Shown here piece after piece: positions 1 through 34,036 of a stretch of 64,000 nt of DNA. Position numbers and translations under genes: made by a program. The stretch is from Syntrophales bacterium. Lineage in GTDB: Bacteria; Desulfobacterota; Syntrophia; Syntrophales; UBA2210. The first letter of the stretch is position 1. Every line of letters starts with the position of its first letter. The notes under the pieces were generated by a model. The model did not search any database and was not told the origin of the DNA. It was given only the letters and a program-made list of their open reading frames with translations. The stretch is taken from positions 2,688,001-2,752,000 of the forward strand of contig CAXXKT010000001.1 in the NCBI GenBank assembly GCA_963662405.2, in the 5' to 3' direction.

Positions 1-3000
1 ATCAGATAGAAGCAGGGGACCAGGAGGAGTGTTATCAGGGTCGCGAAGAGGACGCCGAAACCGAGCGATATGGCCATGGGGATCATAAACCGGGCCTGGC
101 GCGACGTCTCGAGCATGATGGGGGTCAGTCCGCCGAACGTCGTCAGTGAGGTCAGGAGGATCGGGCGAAAACGGCTGATCGCCGCGGCGTGGATTGCGTC
201 ATGCACCCCTTTCCCCCCTTCCCTCAACCGGTTGGCGAAGTTGATCAAGACGAGGGAATCATTGACGACAACCCCCGAGAGGGCCACGATTCCGAAGAGA
301 CTCATCACGCTGAGGCCGTACCCCATCAGGAGGTGGCCGAAGATCGCCCCGACGATCCCGAAGGGGACGCTTGCCATGATAATCAGCGGCTGGATGTAGC
401 TCTTGAATGGGATGGCCAGGAGGGCGTAAACGGCCAGCATGGCCAGCATCAGCCCCATGAAGAGACTCTTCATGCTGTCCGAGAGGTCAGCCTGGCGCCC
501 CTCGAATCCATAATTGAGTCCGGCGTATTTTTGTTGCAGCTCCGGCAGGGTTTCCGCCTTGAGTGTGGCGAGGATGCGGCTCGCCTCGCTGGGGGGATTG
601 ACATCCGCCGTGACCGTGATGACCCGCCGCCCGTCGCGCCGGCTTATCTCCGTGTAGGCGCGACCTCGCTTCATGTTGACCGCCTCACGGAGGGGGACCT
701 CCCGACCGGTCGGTGTCCGGAGCATCAGTTCTTCGAGGTTGTATTCCGAGGTGCGTTCATCTTCGGGGAGACGAACCATGACCGTGACTTCGTTACGCCC
801 CCGTTGCTGGCGCAGGACCTCGTTTCCGTAGAAGGAGTGACGAACCTGCCCCGCGACGTCACGCGCGGTCAGACCGAGCGCCCGTCCTTCGGGGCGAATT
901 GTAAAATCAATCTGCTCTTTTCCGGGAGCAAAACCATCATTGATATCCTTTACTTTCTGAAAATAGCTCAAGTTCTCCGCCAGCTCCGCCCCGGCGGTTT
1001 CCAGGACCCCGAGATCACGGTGACTGAGTTCGATGGACATGGCCGCCCGCGATCCGGGCCCCCCGGCGTCGGACTTAAATGTGAGGGTCTCCAGACCGGC
1101 GATCGTCCCCACCGCGCTTCGCCAGGCCCTGACAAAATCCCCCGTCTGCATGGGACGTTCATTGGCCGGGGTCAGATACACGCGTACCCGGCAGGTGTGA
1201 CTCCCGGCCGTTCCGTTGACCGTATGTCCGATATCGGAAAATATCCCCTTGACCAGCTGTTTCCCCCCGCTGGCGTCGGCAATTGCTCGTGCAGCCTCCA
1301 CCAGTGATGCCTGGACCGACTCGGTTTTTTCTATTGCCGATCCGTACGGGAGCGCAATCTCCACCTGGGCGAAGTCCGATTCGATCCGTTCCATCAGGGT
1401 GATCCCCATACGCCCGCTCTTGACGTAGACGAGGGTGACGATCAGGATCGCCATCCCGACGGCGACCGTCAGGTATCGCCAGTTGAGGGTTCGATCAAGA
1501 AAGGGACCGTATCGTTCTCTTACCAACCGGGTGAAGCGGTTGCTGAAGCGTTGTTGACTGTTGTGAAGCCAGGCCATGACCACCCGATCGGGTTTGTCGC
1601 TCCGGTGACTCAGGTGTGCCGGAAGGATAAAGAGACTCTCCACCAGGGAGATGGCAAAAACAGTGATCACGACGACCGGGATCGCCATGAACATCTTTCC
1701 GGATATCCCCGGCACGAAGAGGAGGGGGGTGAAGGTCACGATGTTGGTAAGGATGCTGAATGTAACCGGCATGGCCACCTCGCGCACCCCGGCGACCGCC
1801 GCTTTGCCGAAGGGATATCCGCGTTCGCGATAGGTATAGATATTCTCTCCTACCACGATGGCGTCATCGACCACGATCCCCAGCGCCACGATAAAGGCGA
1901 ACATGGACATCATGTTGATACTGATACCAAAACCGGGCAAAAAGAGGATCGAACCAAGAAAGGAGATGGGGATTCCCATGGTGACCCAGAAGGCCAGGCG
2001 TGCCTCCAGAAAGAGTCCCAGGAGGATCAGTACCAGGGCGAGCCCCATATAGCCGTTGTTGAGGAGCATCGTCAGCCGCTGACGATAGACGTCGGACATA
2101 TCACGGAGGATATCGATACTGATGCCGGGCGGGAGTGTTTTCTGCCATTCCTTCATGTGCCTCATAACGGCATCCGCCACCGACAGGGGCGTCTGGCCTC
2201 CCACCCGTGAGACGTCGATCATCAGGGCCGGTTGCCCGTTGAACCGGGCGTACCGGTCCGTATCTTCGAATCCGTCGATGATCGTGGCGATATCCTCCAA
2301 GAGCACGCGAGTGCCGTCGCTGGATGAGATAATGGGGATCCGGGCGAACTCCCTTCCATAATCGCGGCGTTCCCTCATCCTGACCAGGATCTCGCCACCG
2401 GTGGTCTTGATTCCGCCTCCCGGCAGTTCGACGGCCGCCTGTCGGACCTTTGTCGCCACATCGTCGAGTGTCAGGTTATAGGCGCGCAACTTGTCCTGCG
2501 GGACCTCGATGCTGATCTCAAAATCACGGGTTCCGCTCAGTTCCACCTGGGTGATCTCCGGGTCCTGGAGCAGGGTGTCACGCAGTATCTCGGCCTGTTC
2601 CCGGAGGACCCTTTCATCCCGGTCGCCATACAGGACCAGAGAGATAACGCCCCGGCGGTGCGAGGCGATCCCCACCTGCGGGTCTTCAGCCTCTTCGGGG
2701 AAGGATGAGATACGGTCCACCTCACTCTGGATATCACGGGCCAGTTTCTGGAGATTGTGCCCTTCGATCATCTCGACCTGAACGAACCCCGAACCTTCCT
2801 GGGCGCTCGATGTGATCTCCTGTATGCCGTCCAGACCCGAGACGGCCTCCTCCACGGCGAGGATGATCCCCTGTTCGACCTCTTCGGGGCTCGCCCCCGG
2901 GTAGGAGACGGTAATATTGACGAAGTCCAGCTCGAACTCGGGGAAGACCTCCTGCTTGATCTGCAGGGCCCAGATGAAGCCGCCGATCAGCAGGACGAGC

Positions 3001-20014: not shown

Positions 20015-21094
20015 ATGAAGAATAAACGAACAATATGGCTTTTTATCCTGATACTGCTTCTGTTGACAGGATGTGGAATATCCTTTGCCGGTCAGTTCCC
20101 CGATACCGGGCAGACCACCTGTTATGATGCCGCGGGGAATGTGATTCCCTGTCCCCAGCCGGGCGAGGCTTTCTACGGCCAGGATGCTCAGTGTGCGGGG
20201 CCCGCCCGGTCGTACATAAAGCTGGGGGAAAACGGCGTTCAGCTGCCCGATACCGCCACCCAGGCCGGCGGCTGGATTATGATCAAGGACAACGTCACCG
20301 GCCTTGTCTGGGAGATCAAAACCGACGATGAGTCCATTCGCGACAGGGATAACACATATAATTGGTACGACTCAAGTAATGTTTTTATTGTCACATTGAA
20401 CGCACAGAACTTTGGGGGCTATTCCGACTGGCGGATGCCGACTGTGAAGGAGTTATCCTCACTGGTCAACAGCGGCACATATGATCCGGCCATAGACACC
20501 GCGTGGTTTCCCCACACGAGATGGTCTCGCTATTGGTCGTCTACTCCCGACGCCGGCAATGTGAGCAAAGCGTGGCGGGTGGAGTTCGGCAGCGGCTACG
20601 TCTACTCCCTCGGCGATAAGTATGATTGTTATTCTGTGCGCGCCGTTCGCGGAGAGTCGTCGAGCTCTTCCGGCTGTCTCGTAGACAACGAGGACGGAAC
20701 AGTAACCGACACGGAAACCGGACTGATGTGGCAGAAAGCGACGGCGCCCGGCGAATACACCTGGCAAGAGGCGTTGGCATATGCCGCAGGACTCACACTG
20801 GGGGGATATTCCGACTGGCGGCTGCCGAACCGCAATGAACAGCAGACCCTGATAGACTATTCCCGATACGATCCGGCCATCGATCCATTACTGCAGGAGG
20901 ACACGGAGACCAACTATTGGTTGTCTACTACCGACGCCTATTCTACGGACGACGCGTGGTGCGTGTACTTCTCCACCGGCTCCGTCGCCAGCTACGATAA
21001 GTCGAATAGTAGTTGTGTGCGCGCCGTTCGTGATTGGAATCCGTCAAAGGCCATGCCCTGGATACCGCTGCTGTTGCTTAAAAATCCAGAATAA
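20015..21094 (+). CDS. Secreted protein with two DUF1566 (Lcl C-terminal, C-type-lectin-like) domains
   Basis: PDTGQTTCY...FYGQD N-terminus and two D..TGL.W / GGYSDWR.P / YW.ST / VRAVR domains; ends MPWIPLLLLKNPE. Confidence 0.93.
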   Translation: MKNKRTIWLFILILLLLTGCGISFAGQFPDTGQTTCYDAAGNVIPCPQPGEAFYGQDAQCAGPARSYIKLGENGVQLPDTATQAGGWIMIKDNVTGLVWEIKTDDESIRDRDNTYNWYDSSNVFIVTLNAQNFGGYSDWRMPTVKELSSLVNSGTYDPAIDTAWFPHTRWSRYWSSTPDAGNVSKAWRVEFGSGYVYSLGDKYDCYSVRAVRGESSSSSGCLVDNEDGTVTDTETGLMWQKATAPGEYTWQEALAYAAGLTLGGYSDWRLPNRNEQQTLIDYSRYDPAIDPLLQEDTETNYWLSTTDAYSTDDAWCVYFSTGSVASYDKSNSSCVRAVRDWNPSKAMPWIPLLLLKNPE

Positions 21095-23796: not shown

Positions 23797-24645
23797 ATGA
23801 AGACAAAGGGAAAGCTGGGTATCGGAGCCGCTCTGATCGTGATTCTGGTCGCGTCTCTTTCGATCTTTACCGTGGATCAGACGCAGCAGGCGATCGTCAT
23901 ACAGCTCGGGAAACCGCTGAAAGGGATATATGGTCCCGGGCTCCACTTCAAGGTGCCCTTCATTCAGCAGGTTGTTCAGTTCGAACGGCGGATATTGGTG
24001 TACGACGCGACACCGACCGAAATCCTGACACGGGACAAGAAGAATCTTGTGGTGGACAACTATACGAAGTGGGCTATCGAGGATCCGCTCAGATTTTACA
24101 CGACGGTGCGAAACGAGGATGGAGCGCAATCGCGGCTGGACGATATCGTGTACGCGCAGCTTCGGGTCGAGCTTGGTAAGCATGACCTGTCGGATATTGT
24201 CTCGACGACCCGTGATATCATCATGACGAAGGTGACGAAGAAGGCCGCCGAGCGTGCCGGGGATTACGGTATCCGCGTCGTCGACGTGAGGATCAAGCGG
24301 GCGGATCTGCCGGAACAGAATGAGAAGCATGTCTTCGGCCGGATGAAGGCGGAACGGGAACGGCAGGCGAAGCAGTACCGTTCCGAGGGTGAAGAGGAGT
24401 CCAAGAAGATCACGGCGAAGGCCGATATGGAACGGACGATCATTCTGGCGAAGGCCTACAAGGAGTCGGAGCAGATGAAGGGTGAGGGGGATGCCCGGGC
24501 GGTCAAGATATATGCCGACGCGTATCAAAAGGACGTTCGGTTCTATGAGTATATCAGAAGCCTTGAGGCCTACAAGAAGGCCCTCAAGGAGGATGCAAAA
24601 CTGGTGATCGGCGCTGATTCTGAGTTTTTCAAGTTCCTGAATTGA
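23797..24645 (+). CDS. hflC: FtsH modulator HflC
   Basis: PGLHFKVPFIQ, LTRDKKNLVVD, DVRIKRADLP, RMKAERER; follows hflK. Confidence 0.95.
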   Translation: MKTKGKLGIGAALIVILVASLSIFTVDQTQQAIVIQLGKPLKGIYGPGLHFKVPFIQQVVQFERRILVYDATPTEILTRDKKNLVVDNYTKWAIEDPLRFYTTVRNEDGAQSRLDDIVYAQLRVELGKHDLSDIVSTTRDIIMTKVTKKAAERAGDYGIRVVDVRIKRADLPEQNEKHVFGRMKAERERQAKQYRSEGEEESKKITAKADMERTIILAKAYKESEQMKGEGDARAVKIYADAYQKDVRFYEYIRSLEAYKKALKEDAKLVIGADSEFFKFLN

Positions 24646-24782
24646 TAAGCCGATACGAAGACGCAATGCAATGGTTTTCGTGACGTGGAGTGAGAGAATT
24701 TCAATTTCTCCTTGACTTTCCGGGTTTTTGACGGTAGGTGATACCCAAAACGTGAGAGATGTATCCAGGAAGGGAAGAGAAT

Positions 24783-24854
24783 ATGTTTGAGCTGTTGGGC
24801 AACTTTTTTAGCTTTTTTGGTTTTTTTGGTGAGGTCTGCCCTCTGAGCTCTTGA
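24783..24854 (+). CDS. Phe-rich attenuator leader peptide MFELLGNFFSFFGFFGEVCPLSS
   Basis: Purine-rich RBS (ggaagggaagaga); 7 Phe codons in 23 aa, including three FF pairs; directly upstream of a terminator. Confidence 0.8.
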   Translation: MFELLGNFFSFFGFFGEVCPLSS

Positions 24855-24868
24855 CACAAAGCTGTATG

Positions 24869-24913
24869 AGCCGTGGGCAGACCGAGCAACTGCCCACGGC
24901 TTTTTTTATTTTT
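24869..24913 (+). terminator. Attenuator terminator 1
   Basis: Perfect 12-bp stem AGCCGTGGGCAG/CTGCCCACGGCT, 9-nt loop, T-rich tail. Confidence 0.88.
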
Positions 24914-24914
24914 G

Positions 24915-24946
24915 GGGCCGTGGATAATCCACGGCCCTTTTTATTT
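24915..24946 (+). terminator. Second tandem terminator-like hairpin in the leader
   Basis: GGGCCGTGGA-taa-TCCACGGCCC followed by tttttattt. Confidence 0.7.
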
Positions 24947-24964
24947 CAAAGGGAGGGAAAGGCA

Positions 24965-26164
24965 ATGCGGAAAATATGGTGTATCATCATAGGCGTACTT
25001 CTTGTCCTGGGGATGGCCCCGGGCCTGCACGCGAAGGCGATCAAGGTGGGCGCGGCGATCAATCTGACCGGTCCCGCCTCCACCTGGGGACAGTTCCACG
25101 CGAAAGGCCTGCGGGATTATTTCCGGTATGTCAATGAGGTCAAGGGAGGCGTGGACGGGAACCGGATAGAGATGCTCCTCGTGGATACCATGTACAAGGT
25201 TCCCGAAGCGGTAGCGGCGGTCAGAAAATTCGCCGTCAGCGACCGGGTTGATATGATCGCAACCTGGGGAGCGGGAGAGGGACTTGCGGCAAAACCGATC
25301 ATTCAGCGCTACAAGATCCCCACAATCAATTACTCCACGAGCTGGGAAATTCTTGAAGAACCAATCGATTTTATGTATCTTCCTTTTGGAAGCTACCGGC
25401 TCGACTGCTATGCGATCCTGGAATACATCGCTGCAAACCACAAGGGGGAAAATCCGCCGAAGGTTGGTCTCCTGACGTACAACAATGCCTACGGACGGTC
25501 GATACATAAACCAAGCAGGGAATATGCGGAGAAACATGGGATCGATATCGTCGCAATCGAGGAGTTCCCCCCGAAGACGCTCGACCTGACTACGGAGCTG
25601 TTGAAACTGCAAAAGAACGGTGCGGAGTACATCTTCATGCAGATGCTCCCCGCGGCGATCATCACCACCTTCAAATGCGCCGACAGGATCGAGTATGCTC
25701 CCCAGTTCTTCGGGACCTGGACCTCGACGGATCCTGATTTCTTTACCATGGGAGACGGTCTGATCAGGGATCGATTGAAGATGCAGTTCCCCGGCGGATT
25801 GCCCGTCGACAAGGGTGAGGGGATTACGATCATGGAGGACATGTGGAAGCGATACGGCACGGTCGACTCTTTTGACGCCTCCTACTGGGAAGGAGTGGTC
25901 CTGGGGATGATCATGGAGCGTGCATTCGTCCGTGCCCAGGAAAAGTATGGGAAGGTGACGAGAGAAACCATCAACAAGGCGATGGAATCCTTTTCAAATG
26001 AACGATTCGGTGGGCTTATGCCTGACGTTTCCTATTCGAAGACGAATCACGAGGGCTCCTTCACGGCGCGGATCGTCAGGGTCTCGGAGGAGGGAACATA
26101 CCGTCCTGTTACCAACTTTTTCGTGCCCGGCAAGGGAGAGATAGAGGTTCTGGAGGGCAAATGA
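24965..26164 (+). CDS. ABC transporter substrate-binding protein, LIV/HAAT family
   Basis: Signal peptide, IKVGAAINLTGPA, YVNEVKGGVDG; RBS gggagg. Confidence 0.93.
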   Translation: MRKIWCIIIGVLLVLGMAPGLHAKAIKVGAAINLTGPASTWGQFHAKGLRDYFRYVNEVKGGVDGNRIEMLLVDTMYKVPEAVAAVRKFAVSDRVDMIATWGAGEGLAAKPIIQRYKIPTINYSTSWEILEEPIDFMYLPFGSYRLDCYAILEYIAANHKGENPPKVGLLTYNNAYGRSIHKPSREYAEKHGIDIVAIEEFPPKTLDLTTELLKLQKNGAEYIFMQMLPAAIITTFKCADRIEYAPQFFGTWTSTDPDFFTMGDGLIRDRLKMQFPGGLPVDKGEGITIMEDMWKRYGTVDSFDASYWEGVVLGMIMERAFVRAQEKYGKVTRETINKAMESFSNERFGGLMPDVSYSKTNHEGSFTARIVRVSEEGTYRPVTNFFVPGKGEIEVLEGK

Positions 26165-26982
26165 AGGCTTTTCGCGGTCAGCCCGACATCTTTAAGGCCA
26201 TATCCGGCGACGGTAAACGTGCCGATCTAACAGTTGCCGATCTATCACTGCGTTTCGGAGGACTGACGGCCCTGAGCAATGTCGGTTTTGAGGTACAGAC
26301 CGGTGAACTGTTCGCTATTATCGGTCCCAACGGTGCGGGAAAAACCAGCCTTTTAAATTGTTTGACCGGGTTTTATCGACCGCAGGAAGGGGTGATTCTC
26401 TTCAACGGCAAAGACATCACAAACCTGCCGACCCACGGACTGGTCAGTCGCGGCGTCGGCAGGACCTTTCAAAATATCGAACTGTTCCCTGGGATGACCG
26501 TCCTGTCGAATATGCTCCTGGCGCGTCATTCACTGTGCGGTTATGGCCTGGGACGGGCGCTCCTTTTCCTGCCCGGGGTACGCAGGGAAGAGATACGGCA
26601 TCGTCTCGTGGTGGAAGAACTGATCGATTTCCTGGAGATGCAGGCGATTCGAAAGAAACCGGTCGGATCTCTTCCTTACGGACTGCGCAAACGGGTCGAA
26701 CTCGGGCGGGCACTGGCGCTTGAACCGAAGCTCCTGGTCCTGGACGAACCCTTTGCCGGTATGAATCTCGAGGAGAAGGAAGACATGGTGCGGTTCCTCT
26801 CCGAACTGAACGGTCAGTGGGGGCAGACCATGATACTTGTCGAACATGATATGTCGATTGTTATGACCATATCGAACCGCGTGATGGTATTGAATTTCGG
26901 GGAAAAGCTCGCAGAGGGGACCCCCGAGGAAGTACAAAACGACCCAGAGGTCATACGGGCGTATCTGGGAGATGCACAGTGA
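26161..26982 (+). CDS. ABC ATP-binding protein, LivG-like
   Basis: GPNGAGKT, GRTFQN, LPYG, LDEP and VIRAYLG motifs. Confidence 0.95.
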   Translation: MKAFRGQPDIFKAISGDGKRADLTVADLSLRFGGLTALSNVGFEVQTGELFAIIGPNGAGKTSLLNCLTGFYRPQEGVILFNGKDITNLPTHGLVSRGVGRTFQNIELFPGMTVLSNMLLARHSLCGYGLGRALLFLPGVRREEIRHRLVVEELIDFLEMQAIRKKPVGSLPYGLRKRVELGRALALEPKLLVLDEPFAGMNLEEKEDMVRFLSELNGQWGQTMILVEHDMSIVMTISNRVMVLNFGEKLAEGTPEEVQNDPEVIRAYLGDAQ

Positions 26983-28928
26983 ACCGAAACCCGGAGGCCT
27001 CGAAACTCGATACGAAGATGCATCAGAATCCCGAGGGATGGCAGACACTTCCGCAGACCCTCATGGGCCAGGCGGAAAGATATGGGGACCGCATCGCCAT
27101 CCGCGAGAAGGCGTATGGGATATGGCAGAGCTACACGTGGCGGGATTACCGTGCATTTACAAAGAAGGTGGGGTTGGGACTGTGCGCCCTCGGGCTGACA
27201 AGGGGTGATAATATCGGCGTTGTTATGGACAATCACCCCGAATGGCTCTTCAGTCAGTTGGGCGGTCAGGCCCTCGGTGCCGTTATACTTAATCTCTTTA
27301 CCTCCGCCGTCAGCAGCGAGATCGCGGGAACCCTCAATAGAATCAATGCCGCATATGTCATCGTGCAGGACCAGGAACAGGCGGACAAGCTGCTCGACAT
27401 GCGCGACAGCCTCTCCCATGTACGGAAGGTGATCTACGTGGACCGGACCGGGATGAGCGGACCATACCGGGACGATGACTGGCTGATCAGCTTCGCAGAA
27501 CTGCTGGAGAGAGGGGAGGCTTTGGACCGGAAGGAACCCGAGCTCTTCCTCCGGGAGGTGGGGAAGGGGAGGCCGGATGATATTGCCCTGATGATTATGA
27601 CATCGGGGACGACCGGGATCTCCAAACTGGCGATGATGTCGCACAGCAACTTTGCCGCAATGGCGGAAAGTTGGCTGGAGACGCTCCCCGTGGGAATGGA
27701 GGTGGACTGGCTGTCCATGTCCCCCCCCGCATGGATCGTCGATCAGATGTGGACGGGGGTCGCACTGGTCGGGGGGATGACGATGAATTTTCCCGAGACG
27801 CACGAGACGGTCATGGAGGATTTTCGCGAGTTGGGCCCCACGGTTATCATCACCTCGTCCCGTTTCTGGGAGGACCTGGCCTCGACGATCCGCGTCAAGA
27901 TAGGGGATGCCGGACCGATGAGGAGGGCGCTCTTCCGCGTGGCGGAGCGTATCGGCGGGAAGATCACGGACCTGAAGGCCGAGCGGAAAGATCCGGGGTT
28001 CTTATTGCGCTGTGCGGGGTGGCTGGTTTCTCTCACCATATTTCGCCCCCTTCTGGACCGGGTCGGTTGTGCGCGGTTTCACAGCGCATACACAGGGGGA
28101 CATCCGATCAGCCCCGACGTGATACGCTTTTTCCGTTCCCTCGGGTTGAACCTCAAACAGTGTTACGGCCTGACGGAATCGGGGGGGATCTTTCAGGTCC
28201 AGCCCGATGACGAAATCAAGCCGGAAACGGTCGGGAAACCGTTGTCGGGGATGACGGTAAAGATCTCAGAGGATCAGGAGGTTTTTCTCTCCAGCAAGGC
28301 GGTTTTCCGAGGGTATTACAACGATTTCGAGGCTACCCGTGCCGCTTTTGTGGATGGGTGGCTGAGCACCGGTGATGCCGGATACATCGATGATGACGGC
28401 CATCTCGTCATCATCGGGCGCCGGGAAGAGATCATCCGCAACAAGCAGGGTGAGGCCTTTTCTCCCGATTTTATAGAGACGCGTCTCAAGTTCAGCACCT
28501 ACATCCGCGAGGCGGTCACCTTTGGTGAGGGACGTCCCTACATCACCGCGCTGATCAACATCGACATGGGAAACGTCGGTAACTGGGCCGAGGAGCGAAT
28601 GATTCCCTATACCACCTACACCGACCTTTCGCAGCGACGGGAGGTCGAGGACCTTGTGCGCGGGGAAATCCTGGCGGTGAATGAACGCCTGCCGGATGCA
28701 ATGAAAATCCGCCGATTCATTCTCCTCTACAAGCTCCTCGACGCCGACGACGAGGAGCTGACACGGACCGGGAAGGTGCGCAGGAGATTTGTCTACGGGC
28801 TCTACCTGAAACTGATCAATGCCATGTATGAAGATGCGGATGATGTGGATGTAAAGACGACGATCCGCTATCGAGACGGGCAGGTGGGGACGTTGGAGAC
28901 CCGCGTCCGTATATTGAAACTTGATTGA
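26979..28928 (+). CDS. AMP-dependent acyl-CoA synthetase (long-chain fatty acid-CoA ligase-like)
   Basis: TSGTTG, YGLTE, TGDAG and ELTRTGKVRR motifs. Confidence 0.93.
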   Translation: MNRNPEASKLDTKMHQNPEGWQTLPQTLMGQAERYGDRIAIREKAYGIWQSYTWRDYRAFTKKVGLGLCALGLTRGDNIGVVMDNHPEWLFSQLGGQALGAVILNLFTSAVSSEIAGTLNRINAAYVIVQDQEQADKLLDMRDSLSHVRKVIYVDRTGMSGPYRDDDWLISFAELLERGEALDRKEPELFLREVGKGRPDDIALMIMTSGTTGISKLAMMSHSNFAAMAESWLETLPVGMEVDWLSMSPPAWIVDQMWTGVALVGGMTMNFPETHETVMEDFRELGPTVIITSSRFWEDLASTIRVKIGDAGPMRRALFRVAERIGGKITDLKAERKDPGFLLRCAGWLVSLTIFRPLLDRVGCARFHSAYTGGHPISPDVIRFFRSLGLNLKQCYGLTESGGIFQVQPDDEIKPETVGKPLSGMTVKISEDQEVFLSSKAVFRGYYNDFEATRAAFVDGWLSTGDAGYIDDDGHLVIIGRREEIIRNKQGEAFSPDFIETRLKFSTYIREAVTFGEGRPYITALINIDMGNVGNWAEERMIPYTTYTDLSQRREVEDLVRGEILAVNERLPDAMKIRRFILLYKLLDADDEELTRTGKVRRRFVYGLYLKLINAMYEDADDVDVKTTIRYRDGQVGTLETRVRILKLD

Positions 28929-28945
28929 AACAGGAGTGCTGTCAT

Positions 28946-29824
28946 ATGGAATTCTTTATCCATCTTTTGGTGAACGGCTTGAGTATCGGTTTTCTCTATG
29001 GCTTGGCGGCCATGGGGTTCGTCATGATATTCAAATCTTCCAGTGTCCTCAATTTTGCGCACGGAGAGCTGATGGCCCTGGGGGCATTTGTCTTCCTGGT
29101 CCTGATCGGGTGGGCGGGTTTGCCGGTCTACCTGGCCTTTCCCCTGGCCCTTGTCGGCTGTTTTATCCTGGGATTTGTCGTGGAGCGCATCTTTCTGCGG
29201 CCCCTGATCGGAGAACCCCTCATCTATGTCATTATGCTCACCGTGGGGCTCGCCTCGATATTCAAAGGGATTATGCTGTTCATATGGGGTGGAAACCTCT
29301 ATACATTCCCCGATTTTCTCCCTGCCGGTATCGCCGTTCACTGGGGGAGCATCCATATTCCCCCCGTGTATGTCGTGTCGATCGCGATCGGTCTGATTTT
29401 TCTCATACTCTTCGGCCTCTTTTTCAAGTATTCCTCGCAGGGGATTTACATGCGATCGGTCGCGGATAACCAGCCGGCCGCCCTCTCACTGGGGGTGCAC
29501 GTGCGGAAGGTCTTTGCCCTTTCCTGGGGCATCGCGGCCCTCGTAGCGGGGATGAGCGGGATTGTCCTCGGTATCATCAACGGGATCAATGTTCATGACC
29601 TCTCCTCCATCGGCCTCAAGGTTTTCCCCGTCGTCATCCTGGGAGGATTAGACAGTATTGGCGGGGCCGTGATCGGAGGGCTCATTATCGGTCTCCTGGA
29701 GACATTCACCGGCGGGTACCTGTCGACATCGCTCCGTGACGTCATTCCCTACATCGCATTGGTATTCATCCTGATGGTAAAACCGTACGGTCTCTTCGGC
29801 CTGGTGGAGATAGAAAGGGTATGA
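28946..29824 (+). CDS. ABC permease, LivH-like
   Basis: NFAHGE and ILGGLDSIGGA motifs. Confidence 0.95.
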   Translation: MEFFIHLLVNGLSIGFLYGLAAMGFVMIFKSSSVLNFAHGELMALGAFVFLVLIGWAGLPVYLAFPLALVGCFILGFVVERIFLRPLIGEPLIYVIMLTVGLASIFKGIMLFIWGGNLYTFPDFLPAGIAVHWGSIHIPPVYVVSIAIGLIFLILFGLFFKYSSQGIYMRSVADNQPAALSLGVHVRKVFALSWGIAALVAGMSGIVLGIINGINVHDLSSIGLKVFPVVILGGLDSIGGAVIGGLIIGLLETFTGGYLSTSLRDVIPYIALVFILMVKPYGLFGLVEIERV

Positions 29825-30894
29825 TGAGAAAACTACGCTTTCACCCCTGTGGGAATTTCAACGATCGATACGAGCAGGAGCTGACGATCTTCGAGACGGA
29901 CTTCGGCCGTACCGCCCTTGTGGCAGGTCTTATTTTTCTGTTCGCGGTGGTGCCGTATGCAAGCGGCCCCTATCTTCTCTATATTCTTAACATGGTTGCG
30001 ATAACTGCCATTGCTGCCATCGGTCTCAATATCCTGATCGGTTTCACCGGACAGCTTTCCCTGGGACATGGGGCCTTCTTCGGCGTAGGGGCCTACGCCG
30101 CCGCCATCCTTGCTACGGACGCGGGATTTCCCTTTCTCCTGGCCGTCCCCTGCGCGGGTCTGATTACCGCCCTGGTCGGTGTGCTCTTCGGGTTGCCTTC
30201 CGGGAGGCTGAAAGGGCTCTACCTCACGATCGCGACGCTGGCCGGACAGTTCATCATCGAATACCTCCTCGTCCACTGGGAGGGCCTGACCAAGGGCACG
30301 ATGGGGATCGTTCTCCCCGAGGCCTCCCTCTTCGGGGTAGCCCTCGGCGGCGACCGGAGTTTTTTCTATATCGCCTACGGGGCCCTGATCATTATGACCT
30401 TCATTGCCGTCAATCTCATGAGGACGCGATACGGGAGGGCGTTCGTGGCGATACGCGACAATGACCGGGCCGCAGAGGGGATGGGAATACCCATATTTCC
30501 CTACAAGCTCCTTTCCTTCGGGATCAGCTCCTTCTACGCGGGGGTTGCCGGGGCGCTCTGGGCCTATTATATGATCAGCATTACGACGGAACCCTTCAAT
30601 CTGGGACTTTCCGTGGAATATATCGCGATGGTCATCATTGGAGGGCTGGGGACCGTCGCCGGTTCCATTTACGGGGCAATCTTCATCACGGGACTGAACG
30701 AAGGTCTACGGTGGCTGACCGATGTCCTGATGAGCACCGATCTTTTCAGCGGGATAGGGCTCTCCATGGCGCCACTCCGAGAGCTGGCATTCGGATCGGC
30801 CATCGTACTCTTTATCCTGCTGGAGCCACGGGGGCTTGCCGAGGTGTGGCGTATCATCCGCTCCAACTTCCGGCTCTGGCCGTTTTCGTACTGA
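29821..30894 (+). CDS. ABC permease, LivM-like
   Basis: GQLSLGHGAFFGVGAY, GRAFVAIRDN and EPRGL motifs. Confidence 0.95.
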   Translation: MMRKLRFHPCGNFNDRYEQELTIFETDFGRTALVAGLIFLFAVVPYASGPYLLYILNMVAITAIAAIGLNILIGFTGQLSLGHGAFFGVGAYAAAILATDAGFPFLLAVPCAGLITALVGVLFGLPSGRLKGLYLTIATLAGQFIIEYLLVHWEGLTKGTMGIVLPEASLFGVALGGDRSFFYIAYGALIIMTFIAVNLMRTRYGRAFVAIRDNDRAAEGMGIPIFPYKLLSFGISSFYAGVAGALWAYYMISITTEPFNLGLSVEYIAMVIIGGLGTVAGSIYGAIFITGLNEGLRWLTDVLMSTDLFSGIGLSMAPLRELAFGSAIVLFILLEPRGLAEVWRIIRSNFRLWPFSY

Positions 30895-30903
30895 GAGGGT
30901 GTC

Positions 30904-31707
30904 ATGCGCGACAACATTCTGCTCCAACTGAACAATATCAGCGTCGTCTATTCGGATGTCATCCAGGTCCTGAAGGGGGTTTCCCTCGCCGTCAGGGAGG
31001 GAGATATCGTTTCACTCCTTGGAAGTAACGGGGCGGGAAAGACGACGACGCTCAAGGCTATCTCGGGCCTCCTGAAAACGGAGAACGGAAAGGTCACGGA
31101 CGGCGACATCGTCTACGAAAAGGGCCTCATCCAGAATTCTCCCCCGGAGGCGATCACCCGCCGCGGGATCATCCAGGTCCTCGAGGGGCGGCAACCCTTC
31201 AAATATCTGACGATCGAGGAGAATCTCCGGGTCGGGACGGCCACACGGTGGGGAAAACCGTACGGCAAGGATCTGGAACTTATCTATGATTACTTTCCGC
31301 CACTGAAGAAGAGGCGCAAGAACCTGGCAGGATACTGCAGCGGCGGCGAACTCCAGATGCTCGTGATGGGACGCGCCCTGATGGCACACCCCAAACTGCT
31401 CCTTCTGGACGAGCCATCGCTGGGGCTCGCCCCCCTCGTGGTGAAGGAGATATTCACGATCATTGAACGGATCAACCGGGAACAGGAAACGACGATCGTC
31501 CTCGTCGAGCAGAACGCGAATATGGCGCTCCGGATCGCTCACTACGGGTATATCATGGAAAACGGCAGGATCGTCATGGAGGGTGAGGCCGATGATCTAA
31601 AGAAAAATCCCGATATCAAAGAGTTTTATCTGGGGATGGGGACGGGGGGTGACGCCAAGTCATACCGGGACGTCAAATCATATAAGAGACGCAAGCGGTG
31701 GTTGTGA
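30904..31707 (+). CDS. ABC ATP-binding protein, LivF-like
   Basis: GSNGAGKTT, SGGELQM, LDEPSLGLAP and VEQNA motifs. Confidence 0.95.
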   Translation: MRDNILLQLNNISVVYSDVIQVLKGVSLAVREGDIVSLLGSNGAGKTTTLKAISGLLKTENGKVTDGDIVYEKGLIQNSPPEAITRRGIIQVLEGRQPFKYLTIEENLRVGTATRWGKPYGKDLELIYDYFPPLKKRRKNLAGYCSGGELQMLVMGRALMAHPKLLLLDEPSLGLAPLVVKEIFTIIERINREQETTIVLVEQNANMALRIAHYGYIMENGRIVMEGEADDLKKNPDIKEFYLGMGTGGDAKSYRDVKSYKRRKRWL

Positions 31708-31719
31708 GAGGAGAGTGAC

Positions 31720-32964
31720 ATGGAAAGATACTTTGATGACCTGGAGGAGCGTTCGTCGCTCGATCGAGAGGCTGAGAACAATCGGAAGTTGTCCGGGATG
31801 GTTGACAGGGCCTATACCTGCTCTCCGCTGGTCAAGAAAACCCTCGATGACCTCGGGTTGAAACCGTCGGATATTGCCACCGTCGGCGACCTCGGGAAGC
31901 TCCCCGTCATTTCACGGGAAGCGGTGGTCGAGCTGGAGCAGCGGGACCCTCCCTTCGGGGGCCTTTCTCGGCAGGATCTCCCCGCGGCCCGGATATTCAC
32001 CTCACCGGGACCCGTCTACGAACCGCATCTCGGTGAAGGCGAACTGTGGGGACGGGGATACTGCGCCGCAGGTTTCCGCGAGGGTGACCGGGTCCTCAAC
32101 ACCTTTTCATACCACATGGTGGCCGCCGGTCTGACCTTTCATGAAGGGCTCAGGGCCGTCGGGGCGACGGTGATTCCCTCCGGCACCTCGGGGACCGAGA
32201 CACAGGTCCGGTTGATCCGTGACCTCGGAGTGACGGGATACACCGGCACACCGAGCTTTTTGAACGCCATTATCTCCAAGGCCGAGGAGATGGGGTATGA
32301 TTTCGGGAAGGATTTCGGACTCCGGCGGGCGTCATTTGTGGCGGAACCGCTGCAACCCTCGCTCAGAAAACGGTTCGAAGAGGAGTACGGCATCGATACG
32401 TACCAGATGTACGGTGCCACGGAGGTGGGAGATATCGCTTACGAGTGTTCGGAAAAAAGCGGGTGGCATATCTGTGAGGATGTGATCGTCGAGATCGTGG
32501 ACCCGTCAACGGGCACGCCCGTCGACCCGGGACACCTGGGCGAGGTCGTCGTGACCCGCCTGAACGATAGCTTTTTCCTTTTTCGATTCGGGACGGGAGA
32601 CCTGTCGCGGATGATATTGGAGAAATGCCCCTGCGGCAGGACCGCCGCGAGGCTTGCCGGAATCGCCGGCAGGGTAGGGGACGCGGTCAAGGTGAGGGGG
32701 ATGTTCGTCGCCCCGAGCCAGGTGGCCCAGGTGCGCGAACGCTTCCCGGGGCTTTCCTTTCAGGTGGTGGTAACGAGAGAGGAATACCGGGACATCCTTA
32801 CGGTTATCTTCTTGAAGAACAACGAATATTCAGACATTAATATCGAACAGTTCAAGGATGTGTTTACCTCGATCTGCTCCGTCAGGATAGATCGGATCGA
32901 ATCTGTTGAAGGGGAATTGCTGGAGGGGGACAAGCCGCTGATCGACAGGAGGGGGTGGGAATAG
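31720..32964 (+). CDS. Phenylacetate-CoA ligase (PaaK) family protein
   Basis: IFTSPGPVYEP, GTPSFL, YGATE, RFGTGDL, CPCGRT and GRVGDAVKVRG motifs. Confidence 0.9.
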   Translation: MERYFDDLEERSSLDREAENNRKLSGMVDRAYTCSPLVKKTLDDLGLKPSDIATVGDLGKLPVISREAVVELEQRDPPFGGLSRQDLPAARIFTSPGPVYEPHLGEGELWGRGYCAAGFREGDRVLNTFSYHMVAAGLTFHEGLRAVGATVIPSGTSGTETQVRLIRDLGVTGYTGTPSFLNAIISKAEEMGYDFGKDFGLRRASFVAEPLQPSLRKRFEEEYGIDTYQMYGATEVGDIAYECSEKSGWHICEDVIVEIVDPSTGTPVDPGHLGEVVVTRLNDSFFLFRFGTGDLSRMILEKCPCGRTAARLAGIAGRVGDAVKVRGMFVAPSQVAQVRERFPGLSFQVVVTREEYRDILTVIFLKNNEYSDINIEQFKDVFTSICSVRIDRIESVEGELLEGDKPLIDRRGWE

Positions 32965-32980
32965 AAGGAACAAATCTGGT

Positions 32981-34036
32981 CTAGTCAAAGAGGAGTAACG
33001 GGATCCAGGGACGGGTCTTTCGTCGGTTTATTTCTCTATTGATTGCCGTCAACAAAGATTTTTCCGTAGACGAATCCTGCTCGATGCTCCAGATCATAAC
33101 CCCGCCGCTGTTGTTGATGGCATATCGTGTCTTCTTTTTGATCGTGTTGATTCCGTTAAAGTAATAGCCATCCACATGGTCAATATGGGGACCAAGATCG
33201 GGATTTTCGTCAATGATTACGGCATAGGGTTTGTAGTCTGAGGGTGTTGCCTGGTTATCCTTTGCGAAGAATGGGAGCCCCAACATAATCCGTTCTTTCG
33301 GAAAACCCCTGGTGGTGATCCAATAGTCCAGGGCCTCCACCGCATAGGTGTAGGGGGAATGGTCAACGCCGCCTTTTTCATAGGCCATGACGTTGAGAAA
33401 ATCGACGGTATCTGAGATCGCGGGTTTCACCCACTGCCCGTACCAATCCTCCGGGGACACCGCAGCAGTAAGGAGCTTCGTCTGACCGTCAACGAAGTTG
33501 TCAGGGGATTGCATGGCGGCACGCACCTCCTGCATCAACGCTACAAAATGATCGGCCTCGGTTGTTGAATCCGGAAACTCCCAGTCAATATCCACGCCAT
33601 CCATCCCGTATCTGTTGATAAAGGCGACCAGATTATCGATAAAGGTGGTTCTCATAGCCGCGTCCTCCGCAAGCGCGGCAAAGCGAGAATCAACTCCGCC
33701 TCCGTCACCGATGTCCCATCCGCCGACGGAGATCAGAACCGCGACCCCTTCGTCGTGGGCACGGCTGACCAGACTGTTCAATGCCTGCCGTTCCTCTTCG
33801 TCTATCCCTGACAGCCATTCGAGTTCTCCCGTTGCCGTTGGGACCAGGAAGGCATAATTGATCTGGGTCAGCGTGTCATATTGAACCGTTGAGAGATCTC
33901 CCCCTCTCTGCAGATATCCGACAACTTTTGGTGACAGGGCGCTCCCGGCAGAGATGGAGGAACACGTCAAACACATAACCAGAGTGAAACCTATTATAAA
34001 GGGAAGCATCTTCCCCGATCGCCATCCCGGTGCCAT
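32981..34036 (-). CDS. Secreted glycoside hydrolase family 18 (chitinase-like)
   Basis: ISVGGW, catalytic DGVDIDWEFP, NVMAY and GGVMIW; ends RPWIPLLLFD. The start may be ATG 34009. Confidence 0.93.
   Translation of the reverse strand: MAPGWRSGKMLPFIIGFTLVMCLTCSSISAGSALSPKVVGYLQRGGDLSTVQYDTLTQINYAFLVPTATGELEWLSGIDEEERQALNSLVSRAHDEGVAVLISVGGWDIGDGGGVDSRFAALAEDAAMRTTFIDNLVAFINRYGMDGVDIDWEFPDSTTEADHFVALMQEVRAAMQSPDNFVDGQTKLLTAAVSPEDWYGQWVKPAISDTVDFLNVMAYEKGGVDHSPYTYAVEALDYWITTRGFPKERIMLGLPFFAKDNQATPSDYKPYAVIIDENPDLGPHIDHVDGYYFNGINTIKKKTRYAINNSGGVMIWSIEQDSSTEKSLLTAINREINRRKTRPWIPLLLFD

Follow-up and report, generated by a model that had tools for sequence, protein, structure and literature searches.

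We analysed a window of 64,000 nucleotides (nt) from a Syntrophales bacterium (assembly GCA_963662405.2, contig CAXXKT010000001.1, positions 2,688,001 to 2,752,000 of the forward strand), concentrating on a leader region that precedes an operon for an ATP-binding cassette (ABC) importer and enzymes resembling coenzyme A (CoA) ligases. This region is very probably a leader-peptide transcription attenuator, predicted to sense charged tRNA-Phe by ribosome stalling and to govern read-through of two tandem terminators into the operon. An attenuator of the pheL/trpL type had already been proposed here from the letters of the window, and we refer to that proposal as the original prediction. Those of its sequence predictions that can be examined in silico, i.e. 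the frame, the Phe codons, the stop codon, the pairing and the masked folds, held. By sequence, the region displays the features by which ribosome-mediated attenuators are recognised: a short open reading frame (ORF) with an ATG and a Shine-Dalgarno (SD)-like tract, a cluster of codons for a single amino acid, a terminator before the first gene and an antiterminator exclusive with it.

The Phe leader and its RNA elements

The elements of the leader are listed in Table 1. The SD tract, the 23-residue ORF and its seven Phe codons read as the original prediction had described them. Six of the seven Phe codons fall within the cluster FF-S-FF-G-FF, and an in-frame ATG at 24759 provides an alternative start. 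Leader codons 3-7 (24789-24803, GAGCTGTTGGGCAAC) are similar to the 5′ arm of terminator 1 and pair with its 3′ arm in the fold without a ribosome, a feature absent from the relatives.

Direct reading of the window showed GGTCTGCCC (24833-24841) to be the exact complement of GGGCAGACC (24875-24883), as had been claimed. The antiterminator is longer than earlier described, with an additional pairing between GCTC (24847-24850) and GAGC (24868-24871). As its 3′ arm sits inside the 5′ arm of terminator 1, the two structures are mutually exclusive, and the overlap at 24868-24883 bears out the original prediction on this point as well. The stem of terminator 1 consists of the 12 Watson-Crick pairs already noted between 24869 and 24901, closed by an outer G-U pair (24868/24902). 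A second intrinsic terminator, here called terminator 2, had been overlooked.

Conservation of the leader in Syntrophales

Orthologues of the binding protein encoded by the first gene of the operon were found in 35 of 41 genomes, a sample that spans ranks from genus to order and includes the genome of the window itself. We fetched the upstream regions of 30 orthologous loci and counted structural features on a 29-sequence alignment. The original prediction was to be given up if orthologues lacked a Phe-rich short ORF. An in-frame Phe-rich mini-ORF with the motif FFxFFxFF was present at 29 of the 30 loci, and the entire arrangement recurs there; the single locus without the element is L030. The mini-ORF has an in-frame ATG in 28 of the 29 sequences. 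Its N-terminus is variable in length and sequence, and its core reads G-FF-(S/G)-FF-(G/S)-FF-x-(E/G)-V-C. The distance from the start of GGTCTGCC to the stop codon is exactly 19 nt in 27 of the 29 relatives (TGA in 18, TAG in 6 and TAA in 3) and 10 nt in the remaining two. The six F positions of the motif are Phe in 26, 26, 29, 23, 25 and 21 of the 29 relatives. Where Phe is replaced, the new residue is Tyr in 7 cells of the alignment and the remainder are scattered non-aromatic residues. The Phe codons also vary synonymously, with 19 TTC among 158.

The putative sigma-70 promoter of the window was not called by the consensus scan. Its -10 hexamer TAGGTG is weak and also fails the pattern TTGACN-16..18-TAnnn[T/A], which 17 of 29 relatives match. 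In the relatives whose upstream regions were compared, a TTGAC -35-like hexamer stands at a roughly equal distance upstream.

Compensatory stem changes, which the original prediction had named as a check, were seen in both terminators and, within the antiterminator, only in the inner helix 2. Terminator 1 is paired in 93.9 % of 345 cells, and four of its pairs have both partners changed, among them a pair in which C-G replaces U-A in nine sequences. A script found a hairpin followed by a T-run in 28 of the 29 relatives, one of these being a mis-detected stem. For terminator 2, 81.9 % of cells are paired and seven pairs are changed on both sides; two terminator-like hairpins were detected by the script in 21 of 29 relatives. 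The antiterminator (9 + 4 base pairs) is pairable in 94.7 % of 377 cells in the 29 sequences versus 25-47 % when the partner was slid, and none of 500 shuffles matched its observed paired percentage or covariation score. A proposed relay pairing, between the 3′ arm of terminator 1 and the 5′ arm of terminator 2, has a core of 7 base pairs that is pairable in 94.1 % of cells.

Two boxes of the leader, GGTCTGCC and GCCGTGGGCAGACC, form a 17-position pattern; 179 of 301 genomes from the order contain its exact version, while the reversed control is only sporadic. In the window's own genome the exact pattern occurs once, and a paralogue at the gene for 3-deoxy-D-arabino-heptulosonate 7-phosphate (DAHP) synthase differs from it by one mismatch. 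A scan of a public genome collection with the pattern gave at least 119 matching stretches, from which 80 loci were fetched and 79 were analysable. Among the matches listed, 18 of these 79 loci are leaders of the ABC operon, 17 of the 18 with at least four Phe in the last 30 residues. All 18 come from Syntrophales, Syntrophaceae, Syntrophus or 'Deltaproteobacteria' records, and most other loci among the matches listed are chance matches in unrelated taxa. At one locus (L102) the operon is present, but the open frame has just 8 residues.

Folding and the proposed mechanism

The 226-nt leader folds with -83.2 kcal/mol compared with -64.6 kcal/mol for shuffles (z = -4.0), and 0 of 200 shuffles were as good. 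The 13-pair core of the antiterminator was calculated at -23.5 kcal/mol and its extended form, in a constrained fold, at about -30 kcal/mol; the corresponding energies are -25.7 kcal/mol for terminator 1 and -21.9 kcal/mol for terminator 2. By these calculations the antiterminator is at least as stable as terminator 1. When the RNA is truncated at 24889, as a nascent transcript would be, it is predicted to fold into the antiterminator. In the folds with a masked ribosome footprint, which the original prediction had also proposed, a footprint at the stop codon gave terminators 1 and 2, and one at Phe codon 9 or 12 left the antiterminator arm available. With the antiterminator enforced on nascent RNA reaching to 24927, 24894-24903 pairs with 24914-24923 before the 3′ arm of terminator 2 exists.

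We propose that, when Phe is plentiful, the ribosome would reach the stop codon at 24852-24854 and cover 24833-24850, whereupon terminator 1 would form and transcription would end at 24901-24913, terminator 2 serving as a back-up. When Phe-tRNA is scarce, the ribosome would stall at codons 8-12 and leave the arm 24833-24850 free; the free arm would pair with 24868-24883 and block terminator 1. The released 3′ arm of terminator 1 would then likely capture the 5′ arm of terminator 2, and both stops would be passed. The modelled folds suggest that one stalled ribosome may disable both terminators through this relay of alternative pairings.

Table 1. Features of the Phe leader, its downstream operon and the sister leaders of the same genome. 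Positions are those of the window unless a contig is named.
Feature	Position	Strand	Basis
Putative sigma-70 promoter of leader (TTGACT 24713-24718, 17-nt spacer, TAGGTG 24736-24741)	24713..24741	+	inferred
Purine-rich SD-like tract GGAAGGGAAGAG	24768..24779	+	direct reading of window
Leader mini-ORF MFELLGNFFSFFGFFGEVCPLSS, 23 codons + TGA (24852-24854), ATG 24783	24783..24854	+	direct reading
Regulatory Phe cluster FF-S-FF-G-FF, codons 8-15	24804..24827	+	direct reading, comparison of 29 relatives
Antiterminator 5′ arm, GGTCTGCCC 24833-24841 + GCTC 24847-24850	24833..24850	+	within last leader codons
Shared segment, antiterminator 3′ arm = terminator 1 5′ arm, 16 nt	24868..24883	+	sequence, alignment pairing
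Terminator 1, 13-pair stem 24868-24880/24890-24902, 9-nt loop, T7-A-T5 24901-24913	24868..24913	+	sequence, folding
Proposed relay pairing, terminator 1 3′ arm 24894-24903 with terminator 2 5′ arm 24914-24923	24894..24923	+	predicted
Terminator 2, 11-pair stem (24914-24938), 3-nt loop, T-run	24914..24947	+	terminator scan, folding
Gene 1, LivK-like periplasmic substrate-binding protein; SD AGGGAGGG 24950-24957	24965..26164	+	profile search, Peripla_BP_6 (E 1.2e-45)
Gene 2, LivG-like ABC ATPase	26161..26982	+	profile search
Gene 3, 649-residue AMP-binding acyl-CoA synthetase-like enzyme	26979..28928	+	AMP-binding (1.8e-57), AMP-binding_C_3
Gene 4, LivH-like permease	28925..29824	+	profile search
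Gene 5, LivM-like permease	29821..30894	+	profile search
Gene 6, LivF-like ABC ATPase	30904..31707	+	profile search
Gene 7, 414-residue PaaK-like (phenylacetate-CoA-ligase-like) enzyme	31720..32964	+	PaaK models (3.2e-60, 5e-49)
TrpB-like, trpE and ilvB leader loci	L041 (contig 1, 784475), L043 (2089063), L045 (1338488)	n/a	codon-run scan
Indolepyruvate oxidoreductase/TRAP WWW leader (…NLSTNWWWCEITGRGLFAV) + strong terminator	contig 1, ~2014647-2014790 (L042:148-300), outside window	n/a	codon-run scan
DAHP synthase leader MMGGTMNLTYWFSYFYFGGSVCPSLMSS, mixed Tyr/Phe/Trp codons, two tandem terminators	contig 1, ~2127000-2127250, outside window	-	sequence

Alternative explanations

Several observations weigh against a Phe-sensing attenuator. 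The original claim that stalling at Phe codons frees the antiterminator arm is borne out by the masked folds for codons 9 and 12; at codon 15, in the last Phe pair, a stalled ribosome would hide part of the arm. Variation in the antiterminator is mostly one-sided and wobble-compatible, its two-sided changes being confined to the short inner helix 2 (5 cells). For the relay, 43 of 500 shuffles equal the paired percentage, and its support is mostly conservation. The 1:2 protector pairing is unconvincing in the window (z +1.0 there; mean z -0.8, with 7 of 29 below -1.5), so an untranslated leader would probably read through. In trpL the 1:2 pairing gives termination without translation; such pairing is not universal among known attenuators. 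Moreover, the leaders favour TTT (139 versus 19 TTC) where nine neighbouring genes favour TTC (95 versus 67), a preference that could reflect an RNA-level constraint on the U-runs instead of codon choice, and in the minimum-energy fold the purine-rich SD tract is taken up in pairing with the U-runs. The codon preference and the U-run pairing would also fit a translated leader ORF that reports general translation speed or coupling (slowdown, stress, antibiotic) and not Phe, the U-rich run being incidental or structural. Drug-sensing leader ORFs that gate ABC transporters do exist, e.g. that of bmrCD according to the available text of PMC4191407. Such a general sensor seems improbable to us, as Phe is kept through TTT/TTC changes and some of its replacements are Tyr. 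In addition, the Trp, Val and Tyr/Phe/Trp codons of the sister attenuators described below match their operons, which is hard to explain without amino-acid specificity.

We also considered that the conserved RNA may be a small RNA or a switch that binds a protein or a ligand, with the two boxes as recognition sites and the ORF irrelevant. The primary sequence of the boxes is unusually conserved, as their exact recurrence throughout the order illustrates, leaders of the ilvB type read the box in another frame, which points to a constraint on the RNA, and there is weak, sub-threshold similarity to small RNA models. However, no Rfam family attains its threshold, the conservation of the boxes is explained by their being complementary to one another as well as to the terminator arm, and conservation of the ORF frame, the stop position and the Phe codons does not depend on the boxes, so we regard this explanation as quite unlikely. 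Still less credence is due to the view that nothing is regulated, the hairpins merely terminating the upstream hflKC genes and the T-runs being a low-complexity spacer that is open by chance. It is true that hflK and hflC immediately precede the leader and share its strand, with no other terminator before 24868. Yet the element accompanies the ABC operon in the 10 of 12 relatives that have another upstream neighbour than HflC, the stretch from hflC to the ORF contains a TTGAC-type promoter-like site, and the ORF is found at nearly all orthologous loci with synonymous changes and with all three stop codons at one position. This view is already contradicted by the comparative data.

Probable sister attenuators on a shared chassis

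In the genome from which the window comes, we looked for mini-ORFs that contain codon runs and precede strong terminators. Leaders with WWW were found before the trpE-trpD...trpB operon, before a TrpB-like pyridoxal phosphate enzyme of 453 residues, and before a homologue of the indolepyruvate oxidoreductase (IOR) alpha subunit with a tripartite ATP-independent periplasmic (TRAP) transporter. An acetolactate-synthase-like gene (ilvB) follows a leader that is rich in Val/Leu. The leaders of trpE, the TrpB-like gene and ilvB (3 of 4) likewise carry tandem terminators, which, judged from sequence, look like the house style of the attenuators of this genome. Behind the third WWW leader, the IOR-alpha homologue is followed by the TRAP genes DctP/Q/M and a PaaK paralogue ends just upstream, an arrangement that suggests Trp-gated indole-acid salvage. 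The DAHP synthase gene lies near the one for prephenate dehydratase, and its leader is evidently a paralogue of the window leader and an attenuator of the common aromatic pathway.

The DAHP, trpE, TrpB-like, IOR/TRAP and ilvB leaders share with the window leader the mini-ORF, a ...VC(P/L)... C-terminal arm, a terminator of the GCC(G/A)TGGGC type and tandem terminators; by these likenesses they are evidently paralogues of one predicted chassis. They differ in their codons, which are a Y/W/F mix, WWW or V/L, whereas only the window leader is pure Phe and only the window leader controls a transporter/CoA-ligase operon.

The same chassis was recovered in other genomes. In relatives, a GGTCTGCC...GCCGYGGGC module precedes ilvB and is read in another frame with VVVVV. 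At three loci of family f15 (L178, L180 and L182), ilvB leaders (…LLVVVVVLMGSAARYL) lie on a GGTCTGCC…GCCGCGGGC chassis in a frame that differs from that of the Phe leaders. In one genome two versions coexist, DAHP synthase being preceded by an FWGYYYPW leader and the ABC operon by an FFVFFSFF leader. In genomes outside the order, the chassis carries ORFs that contain Phe and stands in front of operons for DAHP synthase/3-dehydroquinate (DHQ) synthase or aldolase/DHQ-synthase-II. Since the codons of the sister leaders match their downstream genes and the chassis is reused even in another frame, the regulatory codons seem to track the pathway. Because the chassis is shared across pathways and frames, the conserved 'EVC' can be regarded as an RNA constraint and the regulatory codons as the meaningful variable. 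One further locus before DAHP synthase (L123:2380-2660) has a YFYFYFYF-REVCP frame without a start codon, and its ATG frame, MKMPKSLVLFLLLFLLQGGLPIG, is Leu/Phe-rich; this is either an assembly error or another reading of the same U-rich tract.

Comparison with known attenuators

Escherichia coli pheL-pheA and pheM-pheST combine a Phe-rich short ORF, an intrinsic terminator and an exclusive antiterminator, with the ribosome position as the sensor. The window leader resembles them in each of these respects, ribosome-position sensing being predicted. It differs in its target, a transporter/CoA-ligase operon and not pheA or pheST, in its two tandem terminators with a possible relay and no supported 1:2 hairpin, and in its host, which belongs to Syntrophales and not to Gammaproteobacteria. 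A cmscan search of 24400-25200 with E up to 10 gave no match to the Rfam family Phe_leader, i.e. no sequence or covariance-model likeness to it. The search returned 13 weak matches, none of them to an amino-acid leader family and none at the gathering score, and no T-box or riboswitch model matched save a chance-level SAM-II on the opposite strand (E 9.1).

Regarding attenuated ABC transporters, the bmrB leader of bmrCD in Bacillus subtilis is described, in the available text of PMC4191407, as an antibiotic-responsive case of ribosome-mediated attenuation of an ABC transporter. It is like the window leader in placing an ABC transporter operon under such control and unlike it in that the transporter is an exporter, the response is to antibiotics and, as far as that text goes, there is no amino-acid codon run. 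Naville and Gautheret (2010) predicted 'ABC-leaders' before ABC transporter operons and stated that attenuation is known for very few ABC transporters (PMC2965389, main text). Their candidates are likewise predicted attenuators upstream of ABC operons; the five ABC-leaders of their Figure 4 come from other taxa than the window, and the main text nowhere uses the terms 'Syntrophus', 'Deltaproteobacteria' and 'phenylalanine'. Our literature search found no description of the element, and the available part of PMC4833913 held nothing relevant. The mechanism is a classical one; the leader family and its target operon appear to be undescribed.

Leader codons of this type would act as a built-in label of the amino acid that an operon serves. 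Here they would assign a role in Phe supply to a widespread, unannotated operon of the LIV (leucine-isoleucine-valine) type ABC transporter and acyl-CoA synthetase in syntrophic Desulfobacterota, which are mostly uncultured and central to methanogenic degradation. They also point to a modular attenuator chassis that has been rewired for codons of Phe, Trp or Val or for an aromatic mixture, even by a change of frame, and whose tandem terminators may switch together.

The downstream operon and its possible function

The operon consists of seven tightly packed genes, neighbours either overlapping by 4 nt or lying 9-12 nt apart (Table 1). The original prediction had named a transporter and CoA ligases. 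The ABC importer stands; the ligases are AMP-binding and PaaK-like enzymes with scores under the curated cut-offs. Gene 7 reaches 203.9 bits versus 700 and 167 versus 646.3 for the curated PaaK equivalogs, and the best curated match of gene 3, FadD11, is also under its cut-off. The closest solved relative of gene 1 is 3lkb (E 2.9e-31). Six core genes follow the leader in all 12 relatives examined, and each of the 12 has an acyl-CoA-synthetase-like gene within the operon. The hflK- and hflC-like genes upstream lie on the same strand and end at 24645; HflC is the upstream neighbour in 2 of the 12 relatives, both of the window's genus. With the core genes downstream in every one of the 12 and HflC upstream in 2, the element travels with the operon and not with hflC.

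Because the operon would be induced upon shortage of Phe-tRNA, it would serve Phe supply rather than catabolism. The acyl-CoA-synthetase-like gene found in every operon examined, together with the PaaK-like gene here, suggests that the cargo is a CoA-activated carboxylic acid. The likeliest single route, which we put forward tentatively, is the import and CoA activation of an aromatic acid, e.g. phenylacetate, followed by reductive carboxylation to phenylpyruvate by an indolepyruvate-type oxidoreductase. The main alternative is that the transporter simply imports Phe or another hydrophobic amino acid. The genome encodes three IOR-alpha homologues, of which one is the Trp-leader-gated copy flanked by the PaaK paralogue and the TRAP importer. 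Comparable work on aryl acids exists for rumen bacteria. In Methanococcus maripaludis, aryl acids feed aromatic amino-acid synthesis through IOR, according to the available text of PMC4162585.

Four points count against the proposed function. Salvage is not required, since the genome has both prephenate dehydratase and DAHP synthase. The PaaK-like gene follows LivF in 6 of the 12 relatives and is missing from the other 6. The only ligand clue from solved structures is generic 'branched-chain amino acid binding protein' names. Finally, of 18 orthologous operons from elsewhere in the phylum, in families outside the order, 17 have a different leader in place of a Phe leader; as just 1 of 18 carries it, the Phe-leader wiring is largely specific to the order.

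A wider and more doubtful proposal would be that Syntrophales salvage aryl acids to aromatic amino acids with each branch gated by its own leader. The Phe leader would control the ABC importer and two CoA ligases for phenylacetate, and the Trp leader the IOR and the TRAP importer beside the PaaK paralogue for indoleacetate. The leader codons would then label the substrates of transporters that could not otherwise be assigned, cells in syntrophic consortia would cross-feed on fermentation-derived aromatic acids, and a relay would switch two terminators. If the salvage reading were true, it would offer a testable route from environmental phenylacetate to phenylalanine in Syntrophales.

The one Phe leader among the 18 orthologous operons outside the order (L215, genome G504) is a variant, MSMATKNMIEKSFGFFFFD, whose stop codon TAG abuts GGTCTGCC, so that the ORF ends before the antiterminator arm and not inside it. 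At five other loci from other families (L218, L221, L222, L223 and L227), the Phe leader is replaced by another conserved region, a promoter-like box TTTACTTGC…TGTGTAAAATGG followed some 60-90 nt on by GAAAGGAGGTGAT. In the flanks of the window, and unrelated to the leader, we noted a protein with an Lcl C-terminal domain (20015-21094) and a GH18 glycosyl hydrolase (32981-34036).

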